Source: an uncultured cyanobacterium
GTDB lineage: Bacteria > Cyanobacteriota > Cyanobacteriia > Cyanobacteriales > CAWUOF01
Direction of reading: 5' to 3'
Assembly (NCBI GenBank): GCA_963744145.1
Contig: CAVUSO010000001.1
Coordinates: 5,760,001 to 5,824,000, forward strand
DNA length: 64,000 nt
Shown here: one piece after another, positions 24,563-45,915 of the stretch
How the letters are laid out: every line of letters begins with the position of its first letter
How positions within the stretch are numbered: position 1 is the first letter of the stretch
Position numbers and translations under genes: made by a program
The notes under the pieces: generated by a model
What the model saw: only the letters and a program-made list of their open reading frames with translations
Told to the model about the DNA's origin: nothing
Database searches by the model: none

Positions 24563-24658
24563 AAGCTTTTTTCATCCCGTCTGACAAACAATTACTATAT
24601 GATCATTTTACTTTGGCTCCAATCTACAAAGAAGTTGGGGCAATCTAGTAGATTTAGC

Positions 24659-25529
24659 AAGCATGACCGAGTTCGTGCAGAAAAGTCACTAGCATGATTA
24701 AAACCGCCAAAGTCAAGACCGTGGTCGAGCCGCCGATGGCCCAAACTGTTTGATTCGATGCGATCGCTTCTTCCGCCGAATCTAGCCATACGGCGATCGA
24801 GGAGGTAATAAATGCACAAAGGATAAATCCAATTGGCCAAGTCCAAATCCAGCGTAATTTGTCGATATGTTTGGTGAGCCAAACATCGGGATTAAAGACT
24901 GGAATTTGATAATAGAATAGTTGCATTAAATTGAATTTTTTCGGAGGTTTTTGTGGATTTATTCCTTCCAGCATCCCCGATGCTGCTAACATTTGGAGGA
25001 GATATTGCAGTTCCTCTAAGGTAATGTCGTATTGATTCGCGATCGCGGGAATTGATATTAGCTGCAATTGGGAAATTATCTCCTTATCAAAATTATCTAT
25101 TTGCAGATTAGTCAGGTTTTCCGGATTGCGAAGTATCCAATAATCCTCGGGGTGATATATCCATTCCAAGCTTGATTTTAATTGAATACCATTATTAGTT
25201 ACCTGGGGTGAAACCGCATCGGATACAGGTTTTTCTCCTTCTATTTCTGGGGGAGTTAGTAAGATTTCCCAATCAGTTAATTGCTGAAGCAATTTGACAA
25301 TAAATTCGGCAGGAATAAACTTATTGAAATGAGAGCGACAACGGTTTAAAACTTGACGAGCCGTATATTTTCCCGTAAAGTGTTTTAAAGCATAGCCTTC
25401 TATCGCTTCAAATTGATAGCGACGATTTCCGATTTTCGCTTGTAAGATTACTTGACCTGAATGATATAGTTAGTCATCTATTTGCCAATGAGCAGATAGA
25501 TCGGGACAAATAAGTTCTAGGTTATCCAT
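24659..25529 (-). pseudogene. Truncated copy 1 of the RRE-like/M50 peptidase
   Basis: Near-identical to 38032-38902; CAA>TAA at 25470-25472; similarity ends right after HELGHA. Confidence 0.88.
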
Positions 25530-25839
25530 TGAAGTAACTGTATTGATGTACTGTCAAAAAAAAAATAACTTGCGGTAATCCTTTACTGAGCCAGAAAATA
25601 GATATTTTAGGATCATCTATTTACTACTTGGAGGGGAAAGGAATACTTAGTCAATCGTTCAAATATTTCCGACAGTTTTTGAGTTCAAAAGGTAGAATGT
25701 TCAAAATCGATCTATCCCCTGAAAATCAAGGGATTGCCACTAGGATCTCAAAACTATCCAAGCTATTAAGTTAAAGCTTTTGGCCAAAACTTATCATCCG
25801 AATACAGAATAACTTAACTATGAGCAGAAAACCAGCAAA

Positions 25840-25937
25840 TTAATATAAAGTTTCTGTAAACCTATTATCAAGATTATGTAAAGTTCCTAAAAATATTCAG
25901 CTAACATCTTGACATTACAAATGAATTTTTCTAGCAT
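25840..25937 (+). promoter_or_regulatory. Promoter of S8 gene copy 1: TTGACA-N17-TAGCAT with upstream 11-bp-period direct repeats
   Basis: -35 at 25909-25914, -10 at 25932-25937; four repeats at 25840-25883; conserved in copy 2. Confidence 0.65.
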
Positions 25938-27895
25938 AGCGGCATCCAGTTATGTGAGGAAACGACAGCTCACTGGATGGCCAAATTTTCTGAAATTAGG
26001 GGTGGATATGGCATTCTCATCTCAGGGTAAACAAGCATCTTCAGGTCAAGGTTTGGGAAAATCAACCAAAAAACGCCACATTCGACGGCGGAGTTTCATT
26101 TTAGAGGAAATTAATACCCCTAGCGCCCTGATTCCCGGTGGGTTATCTGAATGGAATCCCCTCAAGCATATCCTCGAAACATTCTCACACTTAGGTTTAC
26201 ATTTACCAATTAATTTACATTTTTTGGCCTTAGACGGTGGTACTTGTCCCACCACCCCATCAACCAATGACCCAGGAGTCCCGTTACCAGATTTTGACCC
26301 TTTAGGATTAAGACATAATGGAGTTCCCCCTCAGACACCATTTAATCTTGATAGTGCGATCGTAACTCTACCCCCTCCCACTACTATCCTGATCGATCCA
26401 CCAGGAACAGGTTCAGGTAATGTAAATAATCCTGTTACGTTAGATCCGAAACAGTTTGATTTTCCTTTATCTTCTCAGCCATTAGTTGGTGATATAGATA
26501 CAGGATTAAATGCCAATAATCCCTATTTTAACTACAATAATATTAAGGAAGGATATAATTATGTCGATAATACTAATAGTTCCTTAATTCAATCAGGTAA
26601 TCAACATGGTACTTTTACCTTTGGGATTATTGATTCAATTAATCAAACCGCACCAAAATGGGTAGGAGATGCGATCGGTTCTGGTAAATGGGCTGATTCT
26701 TTAGTAGATTTTGTGAATGCGGCTAAAGCATCTGGGCAAAAGAATGCGATCGTCAATCTTAGTTTAGATTTAACTCAGAAAAACCCTGATGGAACGGTAA
26801 CAACACGCTATGAATTGACACCTGAAGAAAGAGCAGCTTTAGAATATGCTCGTCAAAATGGAGTTCTGATCGCAGTAGCCGCAGGAAATGACGGTGGAGT
26901 AATGTCTGTTTTAGGACAAGCTTCCCAGGAATTTGACAATATTATTACAGTTGGTTCTGGAGATACTAACGGTCGCGATTCTTATTCAAGTCACGGTTAC
27001 GGTTTAGATATTTTAGCAGACGGTGGCACAAGTGAAAATCCCGTTTACTCAACCGAGGGAAGTGGCTTAGGAACAATGGCTGGAACTTCTGTAGCAACAG
27101 CTAAGGTAACAGGAGCAGCATCATTAGTTTGGGCAGCAAATCCCAATCTAAGCTATCGTCAAGTTATTGATATTTTGGAGAAAACTGCGAAGGATTTAGG
27201 AACATCAGGATGGGATCAAGATACAGGTTTTGGACTATTAAATGTAGTAGCAGCAGTGCAATTGGCAAAAAATACTACACCAGAAGTACAAGCTACACCT
27301 CCAATTTTTACACCAACAACTTGGGGGGGTGAAGGAAAAGTTACGCCGTTAGAACGAGCTGCTTCAGATATTCCAGAATCTTGGCAGATGAGTAGTTCGG
27401 CGAAAGGAGCAGGACAAATTGCAGTTAGTCGCGATCAAGATGGTCGTCTTGAAGCATTTACAATTGGCTCTGACAATAAGGTTTATCATGCTTGGCAAAC
27501 TTCTCCTAATGGTGATTGGTCTAACTGGAGTGAGATGTCTGGAGAAACTGCTAAGAGTCTAACTGTAGCTCGAAACCAAGATGGTCGTTTAGAAGTGTTT
27601 GCAATCAACACAGATGGTAAGGTTTATCACAACTGGCAAACAACTCCTAATGGTAGTTGGGATAACTGGGACCTTCTAGCTAATAGTGTTGATGCTCAAG
27701 ATTTAACCATAGGTCAAGACGCCGATGGTCACTTAGAAGCTTTTGCGATCGATACAAATAATCAAGTTATTCACACTTGGCAAGGTCCAGGTGGTTGGAG
27801 TGACTGGGGACCGATTGCAGGTGGTAGTGCCAAAAGTATTACCGTAGGTCGCAATCCAGATGGTCGTTTGGAATTATTTACAATTGATACAGATG

Positions 27896-29470
27896 CAATA
27901 CTCCGGACAAAATTAAACTGCAATCGCACCGTAGGAAAGTAGTTCTGAGTAATTGGGATGGCTTTTGATCAAAGTCGGCTCCAAATCTAACTTCAAAATA
28001 AATTGTTCCAAAAGATGCGCGTTGAAGGCTTGGCGTTTATAAGTAGCCATAGAAAAGATAAAGGGCTCATCTTCTTGATGGTTTAATCTGGCTGATAATT
28101 TGGCAATATTCAAAGCTGTCAGACTAGCATTAAAATGAAAATCTAATTTGGCCGCATCACGGGCTTGACAATCCACTAATCCTGTAAACTGTTTAGCATC
28201 ACGAAAAATAAATTCAATCTGAAAACGAGCCTGATAATACTCGTAAATTTCCAGGGCGGTCAGCGACAAATCTGTTGAAAACAAAATTAGATAACCAGTT
28301 TTGTCAGGCTGACGCTGATCAACAACCACGACAATTTTAATGTTTCTCTCTAAGGAGACATGATTAACTATCGCACTATAAATATTAACTGATTTCTCAA
28401 CTTCCTGGCCCCAAGTCAAACGACTTAAATTAGTGAAATTGACTTTTCCTGCATAGAGACGTGGGCGACCACGCTCTTTTTGTTCACCCTGATATAAATA
28501 ACGCATATTGGCATCAATCCGCAATTTACCTAGGTAATGAAAATTGACAGATATCACCCCATCAACAAACTTTTTTTTACTATAGTACCCATCAGCTACT
28601 AGGTGGCGTATATCCGATGGAATATAGCTTTGAGCTCTTTTTAGTTGCTCTAAATACTGATCTACTCTTGTAGCTTCATCCTCTTGATTGTCCGATGTTT
28701 TCGGACTAGATTTTCGGGATTTTTTCTGATTTTTTCCTGGCGATTTTTTGGTGGTTTTTCTTGGTGATTCTGTGGGCAAAGATGGTGATGTTTGCTGAAC
28801 AGATAAAGCATAAGCCGTGTTGATATCTAAATCAATAAGTGCGAGCAGAGAAATTTCTAACCCCCGTTCTGCTTGGCTCTTACTACTATTATAGAAATAA
28901 TCTTTTCCATAGGTTTTTTTACCACTTTTTTGAATAAATGAACAGTCCATTGCTAAAATTTTTCGACTCGTGACCGCTAGGGCTAATTGCAGGAGTTGTT
29001 TATTTAACTCCAAAAAATTGAAGGAGCGCTGAAAATGGCGTCGATAAGTTTTTTCGTTTAACTGCGAGTAACGACTTAAATTAGTAAAATTGACTTTACC
29101 ATAGACTAACAAGATAGTTGTCATTAAGGTTAAGAAAAATTTTTTTTGAGCTTTACTAATCCCAGCAAGTTGAGTTAAGATGTTTTCTAGAAAATTCATA
29201 ATTATCGGTCGGGTCGAATTTACATAGTAAATTCTCTCACGATCGATATTTTTTTGGTGATCTCAGTAAGGAAAAAATTGCGCCCAATCCGTTCGGTTGC
29301 CTGATTTGGCCAGAAAATTGTTCAAGTAGAAAACGATTCAGAATCGAAAATATCTGCCAAATCAGGTTTTCGGCTAGTCCCAGTCTGTCTTTTGGCTATT
29401 GGCCGAAAACTATTGGTTAGTCAATTATACCTATAAATAATTTTCTCTCACCAAAGTGTCCGGAGTATTG
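27896..29470 (-). mobile_element. IS element, 1575 bp (IS4-like DDE transposase)
   Basis: 14-bp perfect TIRs CAATACTCCGGACA / TGTCCGGAGTATTG; 7-bp TSD ACAGATG (27889-27895, 29471-29477). Confidence 0.92.
27913..29199 (-). CDS. DDE transposase
   Basis: [31 protein letters not shown] (YREK-like motif). Confidence 0.92.
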
Positions 29471-30069
29471 ACAGATGGTAAGGTTTATCACAACTGGCAA
29501 ACAAGTCCTAATGGTAGTTGGGATAATTGGGGCCTTCTAGCTAATAGTGTTGATGCTCAAGATTTAACCGTAGGTCAAGATGCTGATGGTCACTTAGAAG
29601 CTTTTGCGATCGATACAAATAATCAAGTTATTCACACTTGGTACGGTCCAGGTGGTTGGAGTAACTGGGGACCGATTGCAGGTGGTAGTGCCAAAAGTAT
29701 TACAGTAGGTCGCAATCCAAATGGTAGTTTGGAGCTATTTACAATTGGTACAGATGGTAATGTTTATCACAACTGGCAAACAACTCCTAATGGTAGTTGG
29801 GATAACTGGGGTCTTCTAGCTAATAGTGTTGATGCTCAAGATTTAACTGTAAGTCAAGATGCTGATGGTCACTTAGAAGCTTTTGCGATCAACACAGATA
29901 ATAAAGTTATCCATACTTGGTACGGTCCAGGTGGTTGGAGTAATTGGGGACCGATTTCATCCAGTTCATTGCCTTCTAATAACTCCAATAGCAATAATTC
30001 CTCTGATATTCATTATGTTAATTTCTCTGGTTCTGTTGGGCCGGATATTGGGGTTAACTTGCGTTATAG

Positions 30070-32313
30070 CCCACATTCCGCACCCTGAACTGTCACAATT
30101 CGTAATTACTGAAATAAACCTCTATCAAAGCTGAAATTTTGGCCCACTATCGTCAAAAAAGAGGTTTTTAAACCTTGATGGTCAGGTCATCAATCTCTAG
30201 TTTATTAATAATTATTAGCAATAAGTAGAAAATGAGGATTTCGGCCCGTTTTTTCAATAAATTTTGGTGTTGACTAGCTCTCTTAACTCAGTTTTGTTAG
30301 TTAATAACTGAACAATCTCTAGTTAAGATAGGTTAATTCTTAGCTCTTAATTAAATTCAAGAACTCATTCAAGCTAAATATATTTATGCTATATTAGCAA
30401 GAGGATTAAGTGATAAATTTATAGTAGCGCCGACAATCTTCTGGTAGCAGGGTCAGGATAAATTCACGTTCATTACTCCAATTAGATACTTGTTGTTGTT
30501 GTTGAAATGTGACCAGGTGAATTGCTTGAAAGCATTGAAATATCCATTTAGCTGTTGGACGGTCTGTTGCTTTCCCTAACTGATTTTTTATGGTTGATTT
30601 TGCTGCTGATAAAGCGGCTCGTATTTGTCTTTGTGCTAGGGTATAAACCAGTAAACCTAGCCCCATAATTGCTGCTAATGATTCGATGCGTTCGGGACTT
30701 TTCAGATAAACACTATCTGCAAAAAATGTGGGATCTTTAAGAAAACCAAATCCTCTTTCACAGGATTGCTGTGCCTTATACTCAGTCAGCATTGCCTCAT
30801 TACTAATTTCGCTTTCTGCTAAAACGTTCGTCGCAATTATGAATCTACCTGCACTGTTAGTTTCTTGTTCAATTTGGCTTTTATCCTCGGTAAAACTGCC
30901 GAGAATTTGATAACACTTTTTTTGACTTTTATCTAATTTATCTGGTCTGATTTCCCTGACTTCTTTTGGTTCAATTTGATGATATTTAAAGGATTTCGAT
31001 AGGTGAGTTAATGCCTTGACTGCATCAGCTTTACAGGCAAATCTATCTTGGGATAATTTTCCTAATTCGCTGTTCAGTTTGGTGGCGGATTTACTAATTT
31101 TCTGTGATAATTTCCGTAAATCTGATTCTCTTCTTTCTTGACTTTCCACAACTAGCCATCTTTGCTTTATCCCACCATAAGTCTGCTCTTTTGCCGCCCA
31201 TGAATATCCAACTAATTTGCTTTTAGTAAATTCTGAATCTGGCAAATTTGCTACTAATTCTTGGGCTAATTTTATCTTTAACGGTACTCGGCTTAACCAC
31301 TTAATTTCCGACATTAATTTGAGATTATCTTCTGTATATAAGGCACAATCAGCTACGATTAAACTATCTACTTTTATTTGATTTTTATAATCAATTGCTA
31401 TCTTCGCAAAGCATGATGAGTCGGCTTGATTTCCTGACGCTGCTTTTAAAAATATTGGGATATCTCCATCCCCGGTACATACTAATTCTATTAAAAATTG
31501 TTTTAAATCAGGTCTATGGTCACGGGAATAACCGTAATTTATTTTGATTGGTTGTCGCGATTTTATTTGGGGCTCTCCTTGGTCTGACAATTCTGGCTGA
31601 CTAAATATTATCTCTGGTAATTCTTGATGATATTCCCCATGTACGTGAATTGACGATGAGTCTAGATGGGATGTATTTAAAGATATATCAAACTTTTTAA
31701 CTGCATTTAAAGTAATTGCTAAAAATATTGTATCCAGTCCTTTACTATATAGTTTATCCATCACTCTTCCCAGTTTATCGTCATTTAAATATTCGGGCTT
31801 TACCCCGGCTCCTATTAAATGTTCACAGGGAATTGATTCAAAAAATTTCGGAAACATATATAATGGTTTAGAAATAAATCCTAACCCATTGATAATCATT
31901 GCTTTAACTGCTTGTCCAGCAGTAACTTTTTCTCCCGATTCTATCCCGATTAAATTATTAATTATTTCTACTATTCCAATCGTATCTACTATTCCTGCTA
32001 CTAACCCCAGATGGTCGATATTCTGAATTTTAATATCGTTTATGTCTACCATAGTTACCCAATTTAACGAGCCAATTTTTGGTTCAATTATCGCATTTTT
32101 AGGCTCGATTGCAATTAATTTTTTTACTCTTTCATTTTCCGGACTTCTGCTACGGTTAATCTCTCAATAACCCAGGGCCTCTTTCTGCTCATAAATCTAG
32201 TTTAATAAAATTTATTCTCATTAATCTCATTTATGATCTTTTTGAGCCAACTTTCTTCGTCCCCAATTTTTACCCTTTTATTAAGATGTGCCAGTGAGGG
32301 TGCGGAATGTGGG
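30070..32313 (-). mobile_element. IS1634-family element, 2244 bp
   Basis: 17-bp TIRs CCCACATTCCGCACCCT / AGGGTGCGGAATGTGGG; 6-bp TSD TTATAG (30064-30069, 32314-32319). Confidence 0.93.
30406..32052 (-). CDS. IS1634-family transposase
   Basis: IDHLGLVAG, LNDDKLGRVMD, HLDSSS, GYSRDHRPDLKQ, YKAQQSCERGFGFLK. Confidence 0.92.
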   Translation of the reverse strand: MVDINDIKIQNIDHLGLVAGIVDTIGIVEIINNLIGIESGEKVTAGQAVKAMIINGLGFISKPLYMFPKFFESIPCEHLIGAGVKPEYLNDDKLGRVMDKLYSKGLDTIFLAITLNAVKKFDISLNTSHLDSSSIHVHGEYHQELPEIIFSQPELSDQGEPQIKSRQPIKINYGYSRDHRPDLKQFLIELVCTGDGDIPIFLKAASGNQADSSCFAKIAIDYKNQIKVDSLIVADCALYTEDNLKLMSEIKWLSRVPLKIKLAQELVANLPDSEFTKSKLVGYSWAAKEQTYGGIKQRWLVVESQERRESDLRKLSQKISKSATKLNSELGKLSQDRFACKADAVKALTHLSKSFKYHQIEPKEVREIRPDKLDKSQKKCYQILGSFTEDKSQIEQETNSAGRFIIATNVLAESEISNEAMLTEYKAQQSCERGFGFLKDPTFFADSVYLKSPERIESLAAIMGLGLLVYTLAQRQIRAALSAAKSTIKNQLGKATDRPTAKWIFQCFQAIHLVTFQQQQQVSNWSNEREFILTLLPEDCRRYYKFIT

Positions 32314-34138
32314 TTATAGTCCGAACAAGGATAATCGCAGCCCTTATAATGATCCCTATAATGAGACGTTGAATTTTGATGCTTGGACTTATGGCGATAC
32401 ACTCCCCGATTTCTGGCAAGGAACGCCCGATGCTCGCTGGTTCCGCGTAACTGGCCCAGATGGGAATAAATATTGGGTTCCTAGTGCTTATATTAATGGG
32501 AATCCACCTGATTCTAGTCCTCTTCCAGGTGGTGGTTCTAGCAATAATAATAATTCGGGGAGTAGTAATAGCGGGTATAACAGGCAAGATGCTGTTGCTT
32601 ACGCTCATGAATATGCTAACAGCCGCAATCCTCAATATTACGACTATTCAAACGAAGGTGGAAACTGCGCTAACTTTGTTTCTCAATGTTTAGTTAATGG
32701 TGGACTTTTACCAGACAAGGCAGATAGCAACGGTAAAAATCCTTACGAATATATCAATGCTGATGGATTAACCAACTATTTGCTTAATAACGGTTTTGCG
32801 ACAGAAGTTAGCTCTATTGATCAGTTAGAACCTGGGGATGTAATTGCCTATTCTTGGGATGGCGGTCCAGTCATGGATCACGTTGCTGTATATACTGGTA
32901 ACGGCACTGTGGCTGGTAATACTACCGATGAAGATGGTTGGGATTGGAAACTAGGAGTAGGAAATTACTATCCTAATGGTACAATCAAACTGCTGCACAT
33001 AACTGGTGGAAATAGCGCGTCATTCGTTCCACCTGATTCTGTTACTATTAATGGCTATGATATCAGTGGTCCGTTTTACTCAGTCTTCAAACAGTATCAA
33101 AATTTACTTGGTAATCCTACTTCTTCAGTGATTGTTCAAGGAGATGGCACTAGCATACAATATTTCGATAATGGATACATTTTCTGGGATGGTCAGCAAG
33201 CTGTAGCTTACTACAGTGGAAATGGAATACCAGTTACACCACCTCCGGATAATCTACCTGATCCTTTCGATGGAAACTATGACAGAAATGCTGCGGTTGC
33301 TTATGCTCGAAAATATGCTGATTACCCTAATCCAGAATATCAGGATCAATACAATAATGGTGGTGATTGTACAAATTTCGTCTCTCAAGCTTTAATTGCA
33401 GGTGGAGCTTTATTTCTACCTGTAGTTCAAAACAATTTAATGACATTTTTGCATTTTGGTAAAACTACTTTAAAAAATGATTTTATCAATGCAGATAAAC
33501 TGCCACTATATCTTGAATCTCACGGAATGGCTATTATTAAGAGAGGCTTAAAAGGGCTATCAGTTGAAGAGAAGCTTAGGGAAATTGAACAATTCATGAT
33601 ACCAGGAGATATTTTTGGTTATGACGAACATCCTGGTCAATATATAGATCACCTCAATTTTTATCTTGATTATGGAGCAGACGGTGTACCTAGAGTTGCT
33701 AATCATAGTGGTAATACAGATGAAGGTTATGAGGGCGATTCGATTAAAGATGTTAATTTGGATTCTCTTGAAATGCTAATCCATATCATTCGTCCAGATA
33801 ATAGACTTTAGAATCTATTTTAAAGTTAAAGGAAAGCCTATCTATCGTGGATAAATCTGGTTCTTTAGACTGTAAACTAGCACCTGACTAGAGAAAGCGA
33901 TCACTTTTTCACCATCGAAAGTGCGATCGCTAGTAGGTCTCCCAAGAAGAATCACCTTTACCTATTTATAGAAAAGCGATCGCCTCTATTTCCAATCTCT
34001 ATGTTTACTCTCAGAAGCGATCGCAATTATTAATTCATAAGCGAGGGTTGGAAATAGGAAGCGATCGCCATTGGTAAAATCCGATGAAAAGCAGTTGCTC
34101 AAGTCAAATATTTAATTCATCTTTTGTTGGATAAAATG

Positions 34139-34298
34139 CAATACGGTGCAGTTAACTGTAGGGGCGAAGCATTCGGGCGATTATTTAGCACTTAAATCTG
34201 TTAATATTATATCCGAATGCTGATGCCTACGGCACGCTACGCGAACGCCCGGTCTGCGCCGATATCCCCCAAAAAAAGATGGTAACTGAACCATATTG
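34139..34298. mobile_element. Nezha-like MITE with REP doublet and SDR insertion
   Basis: TIRs CAATACGGTGCAGTTA / TAACTGAACCATATTG; 10-bp TSD GGATAAAATG; an empty paralogous site is present at 47334-47343. Confidence 0.88.
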
Positions 34299-34354
34299 GG
34301 ATAAAATGGTGATAGCGAAGAATGCGATTAGCTTAAACAATTCGGAAGGAAGAA

Positions 34355-34425
34355 GGGCGAAGCATTCCGGGAATAAATTGCTGGTGAGCACCAATAACTG
34401 ATCTGCCGGAATGCTTCGCCCCTAC
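34355..34425. repeat. REP-like doublet GGGCGAAGCATTCCGG...CCGGAATGCTTCGCCCCTAC; further copies near 35134, 45553, 47390, 49627
   Basis: Long inverted repeat with CTAC/GTAG foot and a conserved loop. Confidence 0.8.
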
Positions 34426-34580
34426 AAGAAACTCACATTAGATCGCTTTTTTGAGAGGTCGATGGCGATCGCTAGTAAATCTCCCAAACAGAATCACCTT
34501 TCCCTATTGATAGAAAAGCGATCGCCCCCATCCCCAACTTCTAACCTTACAATGGTGGTATAGTATTGGAACTTAAAATC

Positions 34581-35015
34581 ATGTCTACAGAACAGATGGG
34601 CAAAATTACCACCACATTGACTATTACAAACCGAGCCGATCAATCTGCTGCAACACGCGGTTATATTCCCCCAGAACAAGTCCGCTCGATTACCCTAAAA
34701 AACGTGCTAGTAGATACAGGAGCTACTACCCTTTGTTTACCCCCAGAAGCGATCGCCCAGCTAGGTTTAGAACTGCTGCGAGAAGTTGATGTTACCACTG
34801 CGACCGGACTCAGTAAAGCTCGCATTTTTCGAGATGCTAGTATTTTACTAATGGGACGAGAAGGCACCTTTGAATGTCTAGAATTACCTGGTGGACGAGA
34901 TGCTCTTTTGGGAGTGATTCCTCTGGAAGCTTTGGGAATTGAGTTAGACTTACGAAATCAGCAATTAAAAGTTTTACCCGAAACCTCGATCGATACCTAT
35001 TTAACCATCTTGTAA
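34581..35015 (+). CDS. Clan AA (retropepsin-like) aspartyl protease
   Basis: VLVDTGATTL and ALLGVIPLEALG. Confidence 0.85.
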   Translation: MSTEQMGKITTTLTITNRADQSAATRGYIPPEQVRSITLKNVLVDTGATTLCLPPEAIAQLGLELLREVDVTTATGLSKARIFRDASILLMGREGTFECLELPGGRDALLGVIPLEALGIELDLRNQQLKVLPETSIDTYLTIL

Positions 35016-35606
35016 AAATAATCTTCTTTCCAAATCCCAGAGAGCGATCGCAATTATTAACTCATCAATAGGGTTGGAAATAGGAAGCGATCGCTATTGG
35101 TAAAATCCGCTCAAAAACAGTTGAGAAGAAGAAGGGCGAAGCATTCCGGGAATAAATTGCTGGTGAGCACCAATAACTGATCTGCCGGAATGCTGATGCC
35201 TACGGCACGCTGCGCGAACGCGTAGCGTGCCGTAGGCAAACGCCCCTACTACAATAAACTGACATTATATCGCTTGTTTGAGAGGTCGATGGCGATCGCG
35301 TCATATCTCCAAAGCAGAATCACCTTTCCCTATTTAGAGAAAAGCGATCGCCTAGATCCAATCTCTAGCTTTACAATGGTGATCTAGTATTGGAACTCAA
35401 AATAATGTCTACAGAACAAATGGGCAAAATCACCACTACATTGGTAACATCCTAACTGCCGCAGATGTCCTGAATTTACTCGTCAGGGGAATGGGGCGAT
35501 CGCGTTTTTTGAGGATGGGGCGTGTAATCGCAACAGAAATAAGCTAAACTTTATCCAGGAGGAAACTTTATATTACAAAGCCACGACACTTGCGTAGTTC
35601 GTAATT

Positions 35607-35993
35607 TTGTTAAGAGATAGGATAGGCATTGTGATTCAGGGAGAAGGTTTTACAGTCAAAGAAAGCAAATTGGACTACTTTTTTGGTCGTGCTACATCTA
35701 CCCCGCGCAATGCGAAGCGGTCCTCAAATAATTTAGAAAACCTAAAAAAACTGGGAATTGATGAGACTGTTGATGGCATAGCAAGACTCATTCAAATATT
35801 TCAAGAAGGCTTAAATGCTCCTGAGATTATAGCGTACAGGAAAGACAACGAATACGGAACTAGTATAGCCAGGAAAGTTGAAGTAAGTGGGCCGGATGTA
35901 GTCGGTGCGATCATTGTTAGCTACTACTACCCTGGTGGTAATCGCTCTGTAATCCCTCAAGTTTCCTCAATTATTACCCTCATCTATAAATAG
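35607..35993 (+). CDS. Stand-alone polymorphic-toxin-like C-terminal domain
   Basis: KLDYFFGR...N..RS..NL..L..LGI...SYYYPGGN....P.V.SII resembles CdiA/MafB-type toxin tips as recalled, not searched. Confidence 0.55.
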   Translation: MLRDRIGIVIQGEGFTVKESKLDYFFGRATSTPRNAKRSSNNLENLKKLGIDETVDGIARLIQIFQEGLNAPEIIAYRKDNEYGTSIARKVEVSGPDVVGAIIVSYYYPGGNRSVIPQVSSIITLIYK

Positions 35994-36001
35994 GAAAATT
36001 T

Positions 36002-36496
36002 ATGAAACTTCAACCCATTAATGAATCAGAATTCAACCGAATTGAAAGCCCCCGCCAGATAATTGCCCATGACTATTCTCACTATTTTTCGCTGCTCAAT
36101 CTTGGCGAAAATCTAGGCTATTACGGTCTTAGTTGGAGAAGTCAGCTAGTTGAGCCAATTGTTCAAATTAGTTCTGACAAAAATACAGTTTGGATTGGAG
36201 TAGATCAACAGTTGGCAGCTATTTGTCTCCAAACAGGTCGTATTATTGTAGCCATGCCCCTAACTTGTTATATTGTGGAAATCCTCATCTTGGAGGAGGT
36301 AACGATAGCAATAACAGAAAATGAGGTCCTGGTTTTTAATCCTGGTGGAGCAATCCGCTATAATTGCGGTCTGCCTGACATTCCAGAAGAAATCTCAATT
36401 GTCGGCACGAATTTGCTAATTAAAACCATCGCTGGTGATAATTTAACCATTAATTCGATTGTTGGTAATCTCAAAGAAAAGGTACTATCTGTTTAG
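36002..36496 (+). CDS. Putative immunity protein
   Basis: Starts 8 nt after the toxin-like ORF; 164 aa; no enzyme motif. Confidence 0.55.
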   Translation: MKLQPINESEFNRIESPRQIIAHDYSHYFSLLNLGENLGYYGLSWRSQLVEPIVQISSDKNTVWIGVDQQLAAICLQTGRIIVAMPLTCYIVEILILEEVTIAITENEVLVFNPGGAIRYNCGLPDIPEEISIVGTNLLIKTIAGDNLTINSIVGNLKEKVLSV

Positions 36497-36802
36497 AGAA
36501 AAGGGTGTAATCTTTGCATGAACCAAAATCATGTCTACAGAACAAATGGGCAAAATCACCACCACATTGACTATGACAAACCGAGCTGATCAATCTGCTG
36601 AGCTGATATAAGCCGTGCTATATCTCCAAAGAAAAATCACCTTTCCCTATTTATAGAAAAGCGATCGCCCATCGACCATCTCTAGCTTTACAATGGTGAT
36701 AGCCAAGAAATGTAATCAGCTCAAAAATTAGGAAGAATGGCGATCGCTATGGAGAAAACTAAAAAGTCCAAATCTTGATTCTAATTAGCTGGCGATCGCC
36801 AT

Positions 36803-36835
36803 AAAAAAGCCCCAGATTTTTCTAGGGCTGTTTTT
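36803..36835 (-). terminator. Intrinsic terminator downstream of the PEP-CTERM gene
   Basis: AAAAAAGCCC...GGGCTGTTTTT hairpin with A/T tails. Confidence 0.6.
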
Positions 36836-36876
36836 GTAATTTGTATGACTCAAAACCGATAAAGATATCCTATGGT

Positions 36877-37398
36877 TTAATGAGAACCAGCGATTTTCTT
36901 TTGTTTCCAGTAATAGCCAAAGCTTGCAGCTAAAATTCCACCTATAATAGTGGTTGGTTCTGGTACTGATTCATCCCCAGTAGATTTATTACCGTCAGGA
37001 TTGTTGGCACTAGTATTACTACCTGTGCAACCATTTGAACTACTTGCAATGGGAGCATTAAAGGCAATTTTAACTCCATTAGAATTAGACCCAGTAAAAG
37101 GTTGGGAGTTACCATTATTACTATTAGTTTCTGGAGCATTGAGCAAGTTGAGAGTAGCAACTGGGTTATCCGTGTTAGATAAATTAACTGCAACTTGGGA
37201 ATTATTTGCAGGTGGGACAACACTCCCAGTCAATAGAGGATTATCCGTATTCTGATTGCTCCCATTACCATTACTGTAGGAACTTAGAATTGTGTCAGTG
37301 AGAGGAGTAGCAAGAGTAGGTAAGGATTGTTCGTTAAAAATCACACAACCAACTATTCCGCTGATCAGTATTAGTCCTTTTTTTTGATTAAATTTCAT
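36877..37398 (-). CDS. PEP-CTERM sorting domain protein
   Basis: Signal peptide, Asn/Ser-rich body, C-terminal VPEPTTIIGGILAASFGYYWKQKK. Confidence 0.9.
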   Translation of the reverse strand: MKFNQKKGLILISGIVGCVIFNEQSLPTLATPLTDTILSSYSNGNGSNQNTDNPLLTGSVVPPANNSQVAVNLSNTDNPVATLNLLNAPETNSNNGNSQPFTGSNSNGVKIAFNAPIASSSNGCTGSNTSANNPDGNKSTGDESVPEPTTIIGGILAASFGYYWKQKKIAGSH

Positions 37399-37483
37399 GA
37401 CAATTAGCTCCTAATATTTTTTCCAAAAGGTGAGATTGACTTTCTGATTAAGCATGGTTTTACCCTTGATGATTGAGCGCATT

Positions 37484-38902
37484 TTAAAAATGTGGGATCG
37501 GTAACTTAGTCAAGTCAAATCCTCCTGGTAAATGTTGCATAATCCAAACGGCTAGTAAAGATAGTAGATACCCAAAAATCCAGATGGTATAGGCTATACT
37601 CAAAGGAGCATAAGCCGCCAAAATCCAGCGATCGCTTGGTGCTTCTATGATTTCTTGTCTTTGCCACAATTGGGCATAAAATTGGAACGAGCGATCGCGT
37701 AGATTATTAATTCCTGACCAAGCTACTAACAGATAATATCCGTCAAATTTATTCAGCGGATTAAGGTTAAGCATTACTGTTACTAAAGCGGCTGTCATCA
37801 GCAAATAACTTGTATTATGGATGAGTGGATTAGCACTAGAAAACAGCCAAATCCACACAGCGATCGACCAAATAATTATTTGGACTAAAACTCCTGCTGC
37901 TACTACTAAAATGCGTTCTTTTCGCCTGATTAAACTGTATTGATCGGTAGTGTTAGTATAGCATCCTGGCATCAAGCACATGAATAACAATCCTATCTCA
38001 CGCACCATCCCCCCATAGTGTTTTAAGGTAAAAGCATGACCCAGTTCGTGCAGAAAAGTCACTAGCATGATTAAAACCGCCAAAGTCAAGACCGTGGTCG
38101 AGCCGCCGATGGCCCAAACTGTTTGACTCGATGCGATCGCTTCCTCAGCCGAATCTAGCCATACGGCGATCGAGGAGGTAATAAATGCACAAAGGATAAA
38201 TCCAATTGGTCAAGTCCAAATCCAACGTAATTTGTCGATATGTTTGGTGAGCCAAGCATCAGGATTAAAGACTGGAATTTGATAATAGAAGAGTTGCATT
38301 AAATTGAATTTTTTCGGAGGTTTTTGTGGATTTATTCCTTCCAGCATCCCCGCTCCTGCTAACATTTGGAGGAGATATTGCAGTTCCTCTAAGGTAATGT
38401 CATATTGATTCGCGATCGCGGGAATTGATATTAGCTGCAATTGGGAAATTATCTCCTTATCAAAATTATCTATTTGCAGATTAGTCAGGTTTTCCGGATT
38501 GCGAAGTATCCAATAATCCTCGGGGTGATATATCCATTCCAAGCTTGATTTTAATTGAATACCATTATTAGTTACCTGGGGTGAAACCGCATCGGATACA
38601 GGTTTTTCTCCTTCTATTTCTGGGGTAGTTAGTAAGATTTCCCAATCAGTTAATTGCTGAAGCAATTTGACAATAAATTCGGCAGGAATAAACTTATTGA
38701 AATGAGAGCGACAACGGTTTAAAACTTGACGAGCCGTATATTTTCCCGTAAAGTGCTTTAAAGCATAGCCTTCTATCGCTTCAAATTGATAGCGACGATT
38801 TCCGATTTTCGCTTGTAAGATTACTTGACCTGAATGGTATAGTTGGTCATCTATTTGCCAATGAGCAGATAGATCGGGACAAATAAGTTCTAGGTTATCC
38901 AT
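37484..38902 (-). pseudogene. M50 (site-2) metallopeptidase with two N-terminal PqqD/RRE-like domains; in-frame TGA at 38210-38212
   Basis: HELGH and NLNPLNKFDG motifs; copy 1 has TGG (Trp) where this copy has TGA; both ORF halves are in the same frame. Confidence 0.85.
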
Positions 38903-39212
38903 TGAAGTAACTGTATTGGTGTACTGTCCAAAAAAAAATAACTTGCGGTAATCCTTTACTGAGTGAGAAAATAGATATTTTAGGATCATCTATTCACTAC
39001 TTGGAGGGGAAAGGAATACTTAGTCAATCGTTCAAATATTTCCGATAGTTTTTGAGTTCAAAAGGTAGAATGTTCAAAATCAATCTATCCCCTGAAAATC
39101 AAGGGATTGCCACTAGGATCTCAAAACTATCCAAACTATTAAGTTAAAGCTTTTGGCCAAAACTTATCATCCGAATACAGAATAACCTAACTATGAGCAG
39201 AAAACCAGCAAA

Positions 39213-39310
39213 TTAATATAAAGTTTCTGTAAACCTATTATAAAGATTATGTAAAGTTCCTAAAAATATTCAGCTAACATCTTGACATTACAAATGAATT
39301 TTTCTAACAT
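39213..39310 (+). promoter_or_regulatory. Promoter of S8 gene copy 2: TTGACA-N17-TAACAT with 11-bp-period repeats
   Basis: Paralogous to 25840-25937. Confidence 0.65.
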
Positions 39311-39380
39311 AGCGGCATCCAGTTGTGTGAGCAAATTACAGCCCACTGGATGGCCAAATTTTCTTAAATTAGGGGTAGAT

Positions 39381-42300
39381 ATGGCATTCTCATCTCAGGG
39401 TAAACAAGCATCTTCAGGTCAAGGTTTGGGAAAATCAACCAAAAAACGCCACATTCGACGGCGGAGTTTCATTTTAGAGGAAATTAATACCCCTAGCGCC
39501 CTGATTCCCGGTGGGTTATCTGAATGGAATCCCCTCAAGCATATCCTCGAAACATTCTCACACTTAGGTTTACATTTACCAATTAATTTACATTTTTTGG
39601 CCTTAGACGGTGGTACTTGTCCCACCACCCCATCAACCAATGACCCAGGAGTCCCGTTACCAGATTTTGACCCTTTAGGATTAAGACATAATGGAGTTCC
39701 CCCTCAGACACCATTTAATCTTGATAGTGCGATCGCCACTCTACCTCCTCCCACTACCTTACCGATCGATCCACCAGGAACAGGGTCAGGTAATGTAAAT
39801 AATCCTGTTACATTAGATCCGAAACAGTTTGATTTTCCTTTATCTTCTCAGCCATTAGTTGGTGATATTGATACAGGATTAAATGCCAATAATCCCTATT
39901 TTAACTACAATAATATTAAGGAAGGATATAATTATGTCGATAATACTAATAATTCCTTAATTCAATCAGGTAATCAACACGGTACTTTTACCTTTGGGAT
40001 TATTGATTCAATTAATCAAACCGCACCAAAATGGGTAGGAGATGCGATCGGTTCTGGTAAATGGGCTGAGTCTTTAATAGATTTTGTGAATGCGGCTAAA
40101 GCATCTGGGCAGAAGAATGCGATCGCTAATCTTAGTTTAGATTTAACTCAGAAAAACTCTGATGGAACGGTAACAACACGCTATGAATTCACACCTGAAG
40201 AAAGAGCAGCTTTAGAATATGCTCGTGAAAACAATGTCTTAATTGTCACAGCCGCAGGAAATGATGGCAGTGTAATGTCTGCATTAGGTCAATCTTCCCA
40301 AGAATTTGACAATGTGATTACAGTTGGTTCTGGAAATAGTAATGGTAGGTATGATTATTCTAGCTACGGTAATGGTTTAGATATCCTAGCTGATGGTGGC
40401 ACCACAGCAAACCCCCTTGAATCTACCGTAGGAGATGGGTTAGGAACAATGGCTGGAACTTCAGGAGCGACTGCCAAAGTAACAGGAGCAGCATCATTAG
40501 TATGGGCAGCAAATCCTGAGTTAAGTTACAGTCAAGTGATTGATATTTTGGAGAAAACGGCGAATAATTTAGGAACGCCCGGATGGAATCAAGATACAGG
40601 TTTTGGACTATTAAATGTAGTAGCAGCAGTACAATTAGCAAAGAATACCACGCCAGAGGTACAGGCTACACCTCCGATTTTAACCCCGACAACTTGGGGT
40701 GGTGAAGGGCAAGTTACACCGTTAGAACGGGCTGATTCAGATCAAGGTAGTATTCCAGAATCTTGGCAGATGAGTAGTTCGGCAAAAGGAGTCGGACAAA
40801 TTGCAGTTAGTCGCGATCAAGATGGTTGTCTTGAAGCATTTACAATTGGTGCAGATAATCAAGTTTATCGTGCTTGTCAAACTTCTCCTAATGGTGGTTG
40901 GTCTAACTGGAGTGAGCTGCCTGGAGAAACTGCGAAGAGTCTAACTGTAGCTCAAAACCAAGATGGTCGTTTAGAAGTGTTTGCGATCAACACAGATAAT
41001 CAGGTTGACCATATTTGGCAAACAACTCCTAATGGTACTTGGAGTAATTGGAATACCTTAGCTAATGGAGCTGATGTTCAAGATTTAACTGTGGGACAAG
41101 ATGCCTCTGGTAATTTAGAAGTTTTTGCAATCGATACAAATAATCAAGTTATTCATACTTGGCAAGGTGGTTCCCAAGGTGGTTGGAGTGACTGGGGACC
41201 GATGTCAGGCGTTGCGGCTAAAAGTATTACGGTGGGTCGCAATTCAGATGGTCGTTTAGAACTATTTACAATTGGTACAGATGGTAATGTTTATCACAAC
41301 TGGCAAACAACTCCTAATGGTACTTGGAGTAACTGGAATACCTTAGCTAATGGAGCTGATGTTCAAGATTTAACTGTGGGACAAGATGCCTCTGGTAATT
41401 TAGAAGTTTTTGCAATCGATACAAATAATCAAGTTATTCATACTTGGCAAGGTGGTTCCCAAGGTGGTTGGAGTATCTGGGGACCGATGTCAGGTGTTGC
41501 GGCTAAAAGTATTACCGTAGGTCGCAATCCAGATGGTCGTTTGGAACTATTTACAATTGGTACAGATGGTAATGTTTATCACAACTGGCAAACAACTCCT
41601 AATGGTAGTTGGGATAACTGGGGCATTCTGGCTAATAGTGTTGATGCTCAAGACTTAACTGTAAGTCAAGATGCTGATGGTCACTTAGAAGCTTTTGCGA
41701 TCAACACAGATAATCAAGTTATCCATAGTTGGTACAGTTCCCAAGGTGGTTGGAGTAATTGGGGACCGATTTCATCCAATTCAGTATCCAATTCAGCAGT
41801 TATTAGCGACTATACTATCAGTCAAAGTTTTTTCAACGTTTATCAACAAAATCAAAACTCTCTTGGTAATCCAATTGGTGATGTTCAATCTTTATCTAAT
41901 GGGATCAGCTATCAGAATTTTGAAAATGGGTCGATTATAAATAGTCCGAATGGAACTTTTCCTCTGTATGGACCGATTAGTCAACAATATTTGAACGATG
42001 GGGCACTTAATGGAAACTCACTGCAAAATTTGGGTGTTCCTACTAGTCCTATATATACAGATCAGAATGGATTTCAAACACAGTATTTTGAAAATGGTTC
42101 AATCGTTTGGGATGGTCAGCAAGCTGTAACTTATGATAGCGCAAATGGAGTTCCTGTTGCAAGTATTAATGATATACCAAGTTCAGAACCACAGCAAAAT
42201 ATAATTTATGGTATTAACAATGTCTCTAGTGAAAGTTCTAACTTAATTGGTGATGTTGGTAATTTAACTAGTGACACTCCTAACTTGATTGGTGATGTTG

Positions 42301-44052
42301 GCACAATCCTACAATTACCATATAACAACAATATCCTACAATTACCAGGGATAGTAAAAGTTTCTTCTGGCTCTATTGATGATTTGTTGAAAGGAGCCCA
42401 GCGATTACCACTAAAGAGTGGAGTTGATCCAGTAATACAATACGAAAAGAATGGTGGATGGTCATTAATTTGGGAAGATTATCAAAACTTGACAGAAGGG
42501 TTAAACCCTATACAAAAAGAAACTAGGGATGGTCTTCTTTGGGTGACTAAGCTTCCTGATGGAAGTAAAGCTATCGGTCGAAACTTTAGTTCTGGAAACT
42601 TGCTTACTATTGAAATTCAGAATCCAGATAGTAACACAATTAGAGATCAGATATATTGACCCTATGAGTCCAAGTTCTAAATTTCTTCCTAAAGACTTCC
42701 CTATTGGTGAAGACCCTAGTGTTAGCAGTGATGTCAACAGTCCAACTTCAACTGACATTAATAGTCCTGACTCCAAGATAGTTAGTCCAAGTGATAGTGG
42801 TAATTTTGATTCTGGAACAAGTAATTCAGGAGATAGCAATACGGCTTCAGATACTTCTAGCTCAAGTGATTCTAGTGCCAATGACTCTAGTGTTAGCAGT
42901 GATGTCAACAGTCCAACTTCAACTGACATTAATAGTCCTGACTCCGGGATAGTTAGTCCAAGTGATAGTGGTAATTTTGGTTCTGGAACAAGTAATTCAG
43001 GGGATAGCAATACTACTTCAGATACTTCTAGCTCAAGTGATTCTAGTGCCAATGACTCTAGTGTTAGCCGTGATGTCAACAGTCCAACTTCAACTGACAT
43101 TAATAGTCCTGACTCCGGGATAGTTAGTCCAAATGATAGTGGTAATTTTGGTTCTGGAACAAGTAATTCAGTGGATAGCAATACTGCTTCAGATACTAAT
43201 TTTCCCAGTGAAGGCGATTCTGCTAGTATTTCTTCAGATACTAATTCTTTGGGTGCTTCAACTTTGGGTGATGTTGCCAATACAGCTATGTCAGCAATTT
43301 TCATCGCTGATTCTTCCTTCAATCTTGCAAACGCATATCAACAAGATGGTGGACAATTTGGACAAAACTTTGATACAACAGCAGGCAGTGTAGCTGGTCA
43401 GGTTATCGGTGGGGATATTGGTGCAGAAGTAGGAGAGGCAATTGGTTTTACCATTGGGTCTTTTTTTGGTGGAGTAGGAGCAATTCCAGGGGCAGCTATT
43501 GGTAGTTTTGTTGGTGGTTTAATTGGTTCTAATGTTGGTTCTAATGTTGGTTCTAGCCTAGGTAGTGCCTATTATGGCGCAACTACTGGTGATAGTGGTA
43601 GTTATTCTTCTAATAATTATTCCGGTAGTAACTATAGTAGTAGCTATTCTAGTGGCGCAACTACTGGTGATAATGGTAGTTATTCTTCTAATAATTATTC
43701 TAGCAATAACTACAGCAGTAGCTATTCTAGTGGCGCAACTACTGGTGATAGTGGTAGTTATTCTTCTAATAATTATTCTAGCAATAACTACAGCAGTAGC
43801 TATTCTAGTGGCGCAATTACTGGTGATAATGGTAGTTATTCTTCTAATAATTATTCTAGCAATAACTACAGCAGTAGCTATTCTAGTGGCGCAACTACTG
43901 GTGATAGTGGTAGTTATTCTTCTAATAATTATTCTAGCAATAACTACAGCAGTAGCTATTCTAGTGGCGCAACTACTGGTGATAGTGGTAGTTATTCCTC
44001 TAATAATTATTCTAGCAATAACTACAGCAGTAGCTATTCTAGTGGTTATTAA
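39381..44052 (+). CDS. Leader-S8 peptidase-7-blade propeller-LGFP-like-putative RNase toxin-Ser/Asp repeats-glycine zipper-SSNNY repeats (~1556 aa if the +1 frameshift near 42645 is corrected)
   Basis: ORF 39381-42659 overlaps ORF 42559-44052 in the +1 frame; joining them gives [11 protein letters not shown](I/L)EIRY; S8 motifs DIDTG, HGT, AAGND, GTSGA. Confidence 0.8.
42716..43197 (+). repeat. 171-bp (57-aa) coding tandem repeat, ~2.8 copies
   Basis: GTTAGC(A/C)GTGATGTCAAC recurs at 42721, 42892, 43063. Confidence 0.93.
43576..44043 (+). repeat. 78-bp (26-aa [26 protein letters not shown]) coding tandem repeat, 6 copies
   Basis: Units start at 43576, 43654, 43732, 43810, 43888, 43966. Confidence 0.95.
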
Positions 44053-44208: not shown

Positions 44209-45300
44209 ATGACTCAAAATACAGTTATTAATACCAATTCAAATATAGATAGTCAAATTGAATACATTCATTCTTCTAGTTTTCCAGAATTACTACAACA
44301 ACTAGGAATATCCTTATTAGTTTCTACTTATCAAGCTGGTAAATTAATGGCAATAAGAGCTAAAAATAACCGGTTAACAACTTTATTGCGTAACTTTCAG
44401 CAAGTAAAAGGAATCGCTTTGTCATCTCAGCAACTAGCTATAGGAGTTCTTAACAGTATTTGGTTTTTTCGTAACATTTCAGAAATAATTCCTCTATTAG
44501 AAACTCCTAACGATTATGATGCCTGCTTTATCCCATTATCTTCACAAACCACAGGAGATATTCAGGTTCACGAAATTGCCTGGGTAGAAGAAAAACTTTG
44601 GATAGTTAATACTCGTTTCTCCTGTTTATGTACCCTTGATCCATACTATAGTTTTGTTCCATGTTGGCAACCTTCTTTTATTACTGCTTTAAAAAATGAG
44701 GATCGTTGTCACTTAAATGGATTAGCACTGGTTGATGGTCAGATCAAATATGTTACAGCTTTAGGAGAAACTGATCATGCCCAAGGTTGGCGAGAAAATA
44801 AAGCAAAAGGAGGATGTCTAATCGAATTCCCTACCAGCGAAATAGTGGCACGCGGTTTATGTATGCCTCATTCTCCTCGCTTTTATGATGGGAAGTTGTG
44901 GCTACTGGATTCTGGTAATGGTCATCTATTAGTAGTAGATTTAGACAAAGGTAGTAGTACCGTCGTTGTTGAGTTACCTGGTTTTACCAGAGGTTTAGCT
45001 TTTCACGATCGCTATGCTTTCATCGGTTTATCTCAAATACGCGAGAAAAAAATCTTTAGTGGATTACCAATAGAGGAAAAATTTTCTAAATTACAATGTG
45101 GTGTTTGCATTATTGATATCAAAACAGGTAAACCTGTAGGTTCTCTGGAATTTCAATCTGGCTGTACAGAGTTGTTTGATGTGCAAGTGTTCCCAAATTT
45201 TCGTCAACCAACTATAATTGGTTTCCAGAAAGACACGATCAATAATATCTTCGTTACTAAGGGATTCACTGAATTACCTCAAAATATCCAAATTGAGTAA
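44209..45300 (+). CDS. TIGR03032 / DUF4915 family protein
   Basis: SLLVSTYQAGKL, TGDIQVHE, VNTRFSCL, EDRCHLNGLA, GL.MPHSPR, PGFTRGL. Confidence 0.9.
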   Translation: MTQNTVINTNSNIDSQIEYIHSSSFPELLQQLGISLLVSTYQAGKLMAIRAKNNRLTTLLRNFQQVKGIALSSQQLAIGVLNSIWFFRNISEIIPLLETPNDYDACFIPLSSQTTGDIQVHEIAWVEEKLWIVNTRFSCLCTLDPYYSFVPCWQPSFITALKNEDRCHLNGLALVDGQIKYVTALGETDHAQGWRENKAKGGCLIEFPTSEIVARGLCMPHSPRFYDGKLWLLDSGNGHLLVVDLDKGSSTVVVELPGFTRGLAFHDRYAFIGLSQIREKKIFSGLPIEEKFSKLQCGVCIIDIKTGKPVGSLEFQSGCTELFDVQVFPNFRQPTIIGFQKDTINNIFVTKGFTELPQNIQIE

Positions 45301-45754
45301 GGAAAAAATAATCTTGGTTATTATCATAGATAACACTCAAATAACATTGAATTTGCTCCAGTTGACCAGCTAATTATTAACTTCCGACTACAAAGACAAT
45401 TAGCCTTTTTACCATAGAAAGTGCGATCGCTAGTAAATCTCCCAAGAAAAATCACCTTTCCCTATTGATAGAAAAGCGATCACCGCTATTTCCAATCTCT
45501 ATGTTTACTCTCAGAAGCGATCGCCATTGATAAAATATGCTCAAAAGGAAGAGGGGCGAAGCATTCCGGTCATAAATTGCTGGTGATTACCAATAACTGA
45601 TCTGCCGGAATGCTTCGCCCCTACAATCAACTGACATTATATCGCTTTTTTGAGATGTTGATGGCGATCGCTAGCAGAATCTCCAAAGAAGAATCATATT
45701 TCCCTATTTATAGAAAAGCGATCGCATCCATTCCCAATCTCTATCCTTACAATA

Positions 45755-45915
45755 ATGAGCAAAATTACCACCATATTGACTATTACAAACCGAACCGATC
45801 AATCTGCTCCAACACGCGGTTATATTCCCCCAGATCAAGTCCGCTCAATTACCCTAAAAAATGTGCTAGTAGATCCGAGAGCTACTAGCATGAGTTTACC
45901 CCCAGAAGCGATCGC
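45755..45915 (+). pseudogene. Aspartyl protease fragment truncated at a HIP1 site
   Basis: Matches the 5' half of 34581-35015 up to GAAGCGATCGC, then unrelated sequence. Confidence 0.8.

Follow-up and report, generated by a model that had tools for sequence, protein, structure and literature searches.

A duplicated and broken RRE–M50 protease unit facing leader-tagged subtilases in a cyanobacterial genome: a candidate module for leader-directed processing and export of large proteins

The window analysed here is a stretch of 64,000 nucleotides from an uncultured cyanobacterium (contig CAVUSO010000001.1, positions 5,760,001 to 5,824,000), part of a 7.7-Mb genome with 39% G+C. It holds two copies of one unit, in which a minus-strand gene for an M50 protease faces a large plus-strand gene for an S8 subtilase, the cargo. 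The protease carries two N-terminal domains predicted to fold as ribosomally made, post-translationally modified peptide (RiPP) recognition elements (RREs), and the cargo begins with a short conserved leader. We infer, at slightly better than even odds, that the RRE–M50 binds this leader as a tag, is predicted to cut it after a proline and hands the cargo on for export, although in this genome the module is duplicated and broken. The initial annotation had proposed such a leader-directed pathway, and the evidence assembled below supports it in part.

Both S8 genes (ATG at 26008 and 39381) begin MAFSSQGKQ and carry the leader motif at 26095–26121 and 39468–39494. The predicted 38-residue leader of cargo copy 2 (39381–39494, plus strand) consists of a basic stretch and then FILEEINTP, with the predicted cut after Pro38; that of cargo copy 1 (26008–26121, plus strand) is its duplicate. 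The pattern F.LE.I.TPS has these two matches alone in the six frames of the whole genome, and no further copies of the M50 or the leader were found elsewhere in it. The S8 proteins had been described as lacking a hydrophobic signal peptide, and their first 45 residues indeed have no hydrophobic core, the best 12-residue Kyte–Doolittle mean being 0.77 against 2.9 for the neighbouring PEP-CTERM protein. The identical basic N-terminus of the two proteins, also pointed out at that stage, is real but is not independent conservation. The segments 24659–27895 and 38032–41283 are duplicates of ~3.2 kb with 93% DNA identity (just 27 differences over 38032–39323), so the two leaders are one sequence seen twice. 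The duplication behind the two units is recent.

A profile built from 41 leaders and searched against 1.84 billion representatives matches 177 clusters. The motif is anchored in 149 of the best 150 of these, with its Leu at residue 18–76 (median 32), and among the same best 150 its conservation is F 97, L 100, E 97, I 95, T 96, P 100 and S 96 percent, the values for L, E and P being partly fixed by the anchoring pattern. The consensus is a basic stretch followed by T-F-I-L-E-P-I-L-T-P-S-G, and a hydrophobic stretch above 1.8 occurs within the first 45 residues in just 4 of 144 leaders. The motif had been labelled ‘LEPRxLL-like’, but this is a matter of resemblance only, as neither hidden Markov model concerned (NF012209, LEPR-XLL; PF07595) matches the window proteins, and NF012209 matches in none of five leader-bearing genomes at E≤1. 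PMC8567305, in the part available, presents the planctomycete motif RRLxxExLExRxLLA / LxLExLExRxxP (PF07595) as a supposed novel export signal on very large surface proteins. The cyanobacterial leader shares with these motifs a short basic-then-LE arrangement near the N-terminus, and its FxLExI recalls the LxLExL half, but the second half, LExRxLL, is replaced by TPSG.

The distribution of the leader follows that of the protease. In a sample of 300 other genomes of the phylum, in which the leader search scored at most 20 candidates per genome, the M50 was found at E≤1e-100 in 20, an N-terminal fragment in one more and distant M50s in seven. The leader was found in 16 genomes, 15 of them among these 20 M50-positive ones; the sixteenth match, a 74-aa frame, is the sole match among the 280 genomes without a strong M50. 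Within one family (f6) the same 3 of 37 genomes hold both. Co-occurrence of leader and M50 across genomes, on which the initial annotation had staked its proposal, therefore holds (15 of 16) and extends to genes in trans: cargo lies ~165 kb from the M50 in genome G029 and 2.2 Mb away in G091, while G173 has eight leader matches and one M50. Linkage is thus not the whole cause of the co-occurrence. The M50 of G091 (L095 1–9200) lies at the edge of genes that have the look of a phage-tail or contractile injection cluster, its cargo and adaptor being at the distant site. The distant M50s of non-photosynthetic classes (L110–L115) adjoin genes with a radical-SAM-type cysteine motif, with neither adaptor nor giant cargo, and these loci look like RiPP clusters.

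The leader is not confined to one kind of protein. Among leader matches of at least 700 aa, 70 of 82 have an S8 domain, and the other 12 carry Ig, Calx-beta, calpain, dockerin or PA14 domains. In two f6 loci, which group with Nostocales-type M50s, a leishmanolysin-like domain replaces S8 beside the same M50 family (L102:11190-16184 and L104:3839-8446, with the variant leaders GKSFPLDENISPS and GKSHGLDDIISPS; the leishmanolysin-like (M8) match is below the Pfam cut-off), and in one Microcoleaceae locus dockerin/Ig repeats take its place, again beside this M50 family. Because the motif also heads proteins without S8, it is better regarded as a portable N-terminal tag than as an S8 propeptide. 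The contrary view, that the motif belongs to one S8 family as a conserved element, such as a propeptide or autoprocessing site, with the M50 as a linked passenger, draws on the prevalence of S8 and on the many M50 and cargo genes that are neighbours. It is very improbable given the S8-less proteins, a start of the S8 domain anywhere from residue 141 to 1361, and the co-occurrence in trans, with a leader in only one of the 280 genomes that have no strong M50 match.

The second half of the argument concerns the N-terminal part of the protease. M50 copy 2 (37484–38902, minus strand; 472 codons from the ATG at 38902, with an alternative in-frame ATG upstream at 38989) begins with domain 1 (38630–38881) and domain 2 (38333–38566), the latter adjoining the membrane core. 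Two soluble N-terminal domains with a three-strand/three-helix pattern had been read from the sequence, and an AlphaFold2 model built on a 98-row alignment (mean predicted local distance difference test score, pLDDT, 84) agrees, giving two domains, each of three strands and then three helices, with a disordered linker between them; a single-sequence AlphaFold prediction of the same part reached a pLDDT of only 40. The best Foldseek matches of the model are the cyanobactin oxidase ThcOx (E 9.5e-5, 228 columns, both domains) and then the lasso RRE of TbiB1. By VIA-align, domain 2 is closest to a lasso peptide B1 RRE (6jx3_B; Z 10.4, root mean square deviation 1.9, 76 residues aligned), with TbiB1 at Z 9.3, and domain 1 to PqqD (5sxy; Z 8.6, root mean square deviation 2.7, 87 aligned); TigE (Z 9.0) is also among the best matches. 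Among 48,161 chains, Z≥8 was attained by only five: four RRE/PqqD chains and a methyltransferase that is not a RiPP protein (Rv2067c, Z 9.2). Both domains, as modelled, fold as RRE/PqqD, and the suspicion of a PqqD-like nature is to that extent borne out by structural matches of Z 10.4 and 8.6. Of the two, domain 2 is the likelier leader reader, because relatives in Microcoleus and Okeania have lost domain 1 and kept domain 2 alone. On binding, the leader would, with good probability, add a beta-strand to the RRE next to the membrane and place its Leu(−7) and Ile(−4) in hydrophobic pockets. A complex prediction for RRE1–RRE2 (residues 1–195) with the leader (profile residues 17–48) scored 0.02 against a mark of 0.32 and counts neither way.

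The remainder of the protein is a membrane protease. Pfam PF02163 (Peptidase_M50) scores above its cut-off, on the 3′ part of the gene, and four helices exceed the hydropathy threshold. The divergent M50 motifs recorded at the outset, HELGH and NLNPL..FDG, were both located in copy 2, the zinc-binding HELGH at 38036–38050 and NLNPLNKFDG, with the third zinc ligand, at 37739–37768 (both minus strand). All of 97 homologues have HExxH and all but one (96 of 97) the NxxP..DG motif; in a quick tree the window M50 groups with those of filamentous cyanobacteria. The M50 family is real, though its copies are decayed in this strain. Its best NCBIfam match is the daptide protease model NF041824, below the cut-off of 300 bits (125 bits for the window fragment and 149 for the intact protein of locus L018); the EpeP/YydH model NF058609 gives a weak match (49 bits against 225).

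The daptide protease MpaP/DapP has an RRE fused N-terminally to an intramembrane site-2 protease, and the accessible text of the daptide preprint reports that the leader ELExMEAP is cleaved after its conserved Pro (bioRxiv 10.1101/2023.03.08.531785). The FILE.I.TP leader has the form associated with NF041824 proteases, LE-x-hydrophobic-x-small-P, in the same register: the spacing of I-L-E-P-I-L-T-P agrees with that of the daptide leader, the Leu and Ile fall at −7 and −4, and a Pro at −5, as in MpaA, is present in 65% of leader matches. The shared register adds support to the idea of leader direction. Because daptide leaders are cut after Pro, the cut site is predicted after Pro38, and the M50 would probably cleave there to leave a mature protein starting Ser-Ala/Gly (Ser39 in the window). 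The two systems also differ, as cargo proteins have ~600 to over 4000 residues against a short peptide ending in Thr, and mostly two RREs stand against one. Neither a short Thr-ending precursor nor the DapBCDM enzymes occur in the gene content of the window, and the neighbours in relatives are large proteins. EpeP/YydH, an epipeptide M50 thought to cleave and export its substrate according to the available part of PMC10885120, differs in being a weak match only, with a small peptide substrate and a Gram-positive host.

Export is the likeliest purpose of the module, because the cargo has extracellular-type domains and no signal peptide, and a dedicated HlyD-type adaptor points the same way. This adaptor family is found at E<1e-100 in 13 genomes, all of them M50-positive, the next score being 1e-33 for generic HlyDs. 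The gene lies directly behind that for the M50, or is fused to it (L009, L013 and L024), and G008 and G091 have it amid their cargo genes, well away from the M50. A motif search of 23 loci found an ABC ATPase at 5 kb or less from the adaptor in just two. In most lineages the M50 and dedicated adaptor, with a TolC borrowed from elsewhere and no ABC transporter of their own, would on balance export the cargo; the gene lists of M50 loci contain no recognised GAF-HlyD or TolC, no profile search having been aimed at either.

The window belongs to a lineage without this adaptor. The initial annotation noted that there was no HlyD exporter in the window, and none was found within it; generic HlyD-like genes number more than ten in the genome as a whole. 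The tree covers 52 M50s, with three duplicate loci excluded. Its 20 rows that have no adaptor next to the M50, the window among them, all fall in one branch (SH-aLRT 93) amid adaptor-bearing rows; the branch also takes in one M50 of an adaptor-bearing genome, and for one set of loci the adaptor was checked within 10-kb flanks only. The place of the adaptor in other lineages is occupied in the window by a gene for a PEP-CTERM protein directly downstream of M50 copy 2 (36877–37398, minus strand), and a PEP-CTERM gene follows the M50 here and in 13 of 19 loci of the adaptor-less branch. Of the cargo proteins scanned, all 12 from adaptor-bearing loci or genomes (L018, L091, L092, L096, L097, L099, L100, L105, L120–L122, L125) have a DUF4114 domain after the leader, against 0 of 11 from the adaptor-less branch (L003, L004, L016, L102–L104, L117, L118, L128, window), possibly through one joint loss. 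The adaptor-less M50s are nevertheless under purifying selection, with dN/dS of 0.10–0.26 in the 22 unsaturated of 36 pairs. For this lineage, delivery of cargo to the periplasm or through a generic adaptor may be put forward tentatively, and processing alone is a further possibility.

Processing alone deserves separate mention. On this account the RRE–M50 only removes the leader, for instance so that a hydrolytic protein matures or becomes active, and export is left to ordinary type I or other systems. A whole lineage that keeps M50 and leader under purifying selection without a dedicated adaptor would be expected on this account, as would the many generic HlyD-like genes, and in the accessible text on daptides the clusters hold their own ABC transporters beside the RRE-protease. 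The account is nonetheless unlikely, since each of the 13 genomes with the dedicated adaptor also has the M50, the two genes are neighbours or fused, and the adaptor stays with the cargo genes where these lie far from the M50. Site-2 proteases classically act in signalling, and a further possibility is regulated intramembrane proteolysis or quality control, in which the M50 would sense the leader of mislocalised cargo, degrade that cargo or release a signal, and so shield the producer against the proteases and cell-wall hydrolases that it makes. The amidase, M23, lysozyme and S8 domains found in the cargo could indeed harm a producer, but the gene lists show no conserved regulator or anti-sigma gene, and the linkage to the adaptor and the non-enzymatic Ig-type cargo are left unexplained, so that this can be given very little credence.

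A module of related design was described by Kamneva, Poudel and Ward in 2015 (PMC4452313). Its components are a secondary SecA_DEAD, a Peptidase_M50/HlyD protein and a GAF-HlyD, for which a role in secretion was proposed, with the M50 as inner-membrane pore of an ABC-less system. The main text of that paper, as available, has no occurrence of ‘cyanobacteria’ or ‘PqqD’ and names no cargo or leader. In a comparison with one Magnetococcales locus of the layout described in 2015, rather than with sequences of the paper itself, our family profile could be aligned with an M50–HlyD fusion over the second RRE and on through the M50 core (hhalign 99.8%); the locus also has a GAF-HlyD gene, a further adaptor, TolC and, upstream, a giant gene. 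A HlyD-type adaptor without an ABC transporter recurs in some of the cyanobacterial genomes, the adaptor being present in 13 of the 20 M50-positive ones and absent from that of the window. The cyanobacterial form differs in usually having two RREs, in having one adaptor, in including an adaptor-less lineage, and in lacking the secondary SecA_DEAD, of which none was found in any of six genomes tested, each having one canonical SecA (930–961 aa). The pore role suggested for the homologous M50 (PMC4452313) also underlies another alternative, recognition and translocation without cleavage, in which the M50 helices would form or gate an inner-membrane passage and the leader would stay on the cargo, perhaps as a retention anchor. 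The existence of M50–adaptor fusions suits this scheme, but the near-invariance of the zinc ligands, and the location of the invariant Pro-Ser at the daptide cut position, make it decidedly unlikely.

Leader recognition and removal are coupled to one-step export in peptidase-containing ABC transporters (C39-ABC with HlyD and TolC). Unlike these, the present module travels with no ABC or C39 exporter, and its leader has no double-glycine site. The module resembles a daptide RRE-protease joined to the M50/HlyD module of 2015 and is a member of neither system, because it scores below the NF041824 cut-off and has no small precursor and no secondary SecA. No description of the cyanobacterial system was found in the open-access literature, although the supplements of the daptide preprint and of the 2015 paper may hold gene lists; the part searched of a type I secretion system review (PMC8277102) has no relevant passage.

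A number of observations weigh against recognition, cleavage and export by the RRE–M50. The co-occurrence is imperfect, as 5 of the 20 M50-positive genomes have no leader match. G203 has a divergent LERLNTPS on the gene adjoining its M50, in G005 the contig ends near the M50 gene, and in G083 the M50 is broken, but two cases are unexplained, namely G093, with an intact M50 and an adaptor, and G089, in which the protein adjoining the M50 has 2074 aa and no motif. A wider leader profile run on the five genomes gave two chance-level matches alone, in unrelated frames. The 2074-aa protein of locus L091 (7521–13745), with DUF4114 and calpain domains, stands opposite an intact M50 with adaptor, yet no leader motif can be recognised in it; it is either an exception to the rule or the bearer of a highly divergent tag. 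The profiles were built from neighbours of M50 genes and the kin are not independent; since so many of the long cargo proteins share S8, much of the motif conservation is common descent. No PqqD match was obtained at the sequence level for the window protein and 97 homologues, among the families listed (25 of 32), and the M50 profile, searched against PDB sequences, gave just a weak winged helix-turn-helix match (LrpA, E 0.06). The daptide parallel is itself indirect: in the accessible text of the preprint, cleavage is attributed to MpaP with no test shown, and the residue effects are those of the MpaB RRE, not of MpaP. The dedicated adaptor is absent from this genome and from 7 of the 20 M50-positive genomes, and because the adaptor-less M50 is under purifying selection, adaptor-coupled export is not what keeps it there. 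The analysis turned up no energy source for export, canonical SecA being the only SecA in all six genomes tested.

Finally, both M50 copies of the window are broken. Copy 2 has a premature TGA at 38210–38212 (minus strand), between the RRE domains and the membrane core, where copy 1 encodes Trp. Copy 1 (24654–25529, minus strand) is a pseudogene with a TAA at 25470–25472 and is truncated after HELGHA. As the genome also has no dedicated adaptor family, the route is probably dead in this strain. The sole public run with this DNA (X1), beside which no RNA run is listed, may be the source sample of the window. Its contig shows 13 differences over M50 copy 2, all of them copy-1 alleles and including both the Trp at the TGA site and the copy-1 TAA; the assembly seems to have merged the two copies, and so speaks neither for nor against the TGA.

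Cargo copy 2 (39381–42659, plus strand), which faces M50 copy 2, is an open frame of 1092 codons with the leader, an S8 subtilase domain (39849–40607), beta-propeller lectin-like repeats, LGFP repeats and a C-terminal domain without assignment. The S8 triad is complete in both window copies (DIDTG, HGT, GTS). The C-terminal domain matches nothing in Pfam, the PDB or a homologue search (proteins of 597–1903 aa) besides itself; its last ~100 residues (42351–42641) presumably resemble the toxic tips of bacterial polymorphic toxins. The X1 contig lacks one base at 42643 (depth 7, one contig), which would put the gene in frame with the overlapping open reading frame (ORF) 42559–44052, encoding Ser-rich repeats and a glycine zipper; a frameshift or an assembly error may thus have divided a single protein. 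Cargo copy 1 (26008–33811, plus strand) encodes S8, lectin-like repeats, LGFP repeats and two Amidase_6/CHAP-like domains, and is divided into three pieces (26008–27895, 29471–30064 and 32319–33811) by two minus-strand insertion sequences. The first (27896–29470) has a DDE_5 transposase at 27913–29199 and perfect 14-bp inverted ends. The second (30065–32318) has a DUF4277 transposase at 30406–32052 and 22-bp inverted ends, and we take it to be of the IS1634 type.

A hybrid sensor kinase gene (20808–22551) and an ArgS-related gene (48432–49577) each seem divided between two ORFs, which fits a general decay of genes in the region. Repeats of up to ~300 bp at 33900–35380, 36620–36700, 45400–45760 and 47260–47590, several carrying the 5′ end of an aspartyl-protease gene (34566–35015), lie ahead of differing pairs of small ORFs (35607/36002 and 47616/47957) for which Pfam has no match, and are possibly a decayed cassette array of toxin-immunity-like pairs. 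A TIGR03032/DUF4915 gene (44209–45300) downstream of cargo copy 2 has a paralogue elsewhere in the genome; its linkage to the M50 module was rejected, as no fetched M50 locus contains a match.

With its module broken, the window is a poor test object, but relatives with two- or three-gene forms occur in culturable genera such as Lyngbya, Microcoleus and Limnoraphis. A bolder and rather unlikely extension of the present reading is that the RRE–M50 alone both removes the leader and carries proteins of 100–450 kDa across the inner membrane, gated by the leader and independently of Sec, leading to secretion with the adaptor and to the periplasm without it, as in the Microcoleus/Nostocales lineage, with a transferable 38-residue tag descended from, or convergent with, a RiPP (daptide) leader. 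As a natural experiment, the adaptor-less lineage allows cleavage to be told apart from outer-membrane export. If recognition, cleavage and export by the RRE–M50 are correct, the M50/HlyD module of 2015, itself untested, would gain a substrate, a signal and a cut site, and the cyanobacterial version would be its smallest form. The 38-residue tag would then be a candidate secretion tool for cyanobacteria, and the recognition of a RiPP-type leader would serve to send giant enzymes and adhesins to the outside with no ABC pump involved.

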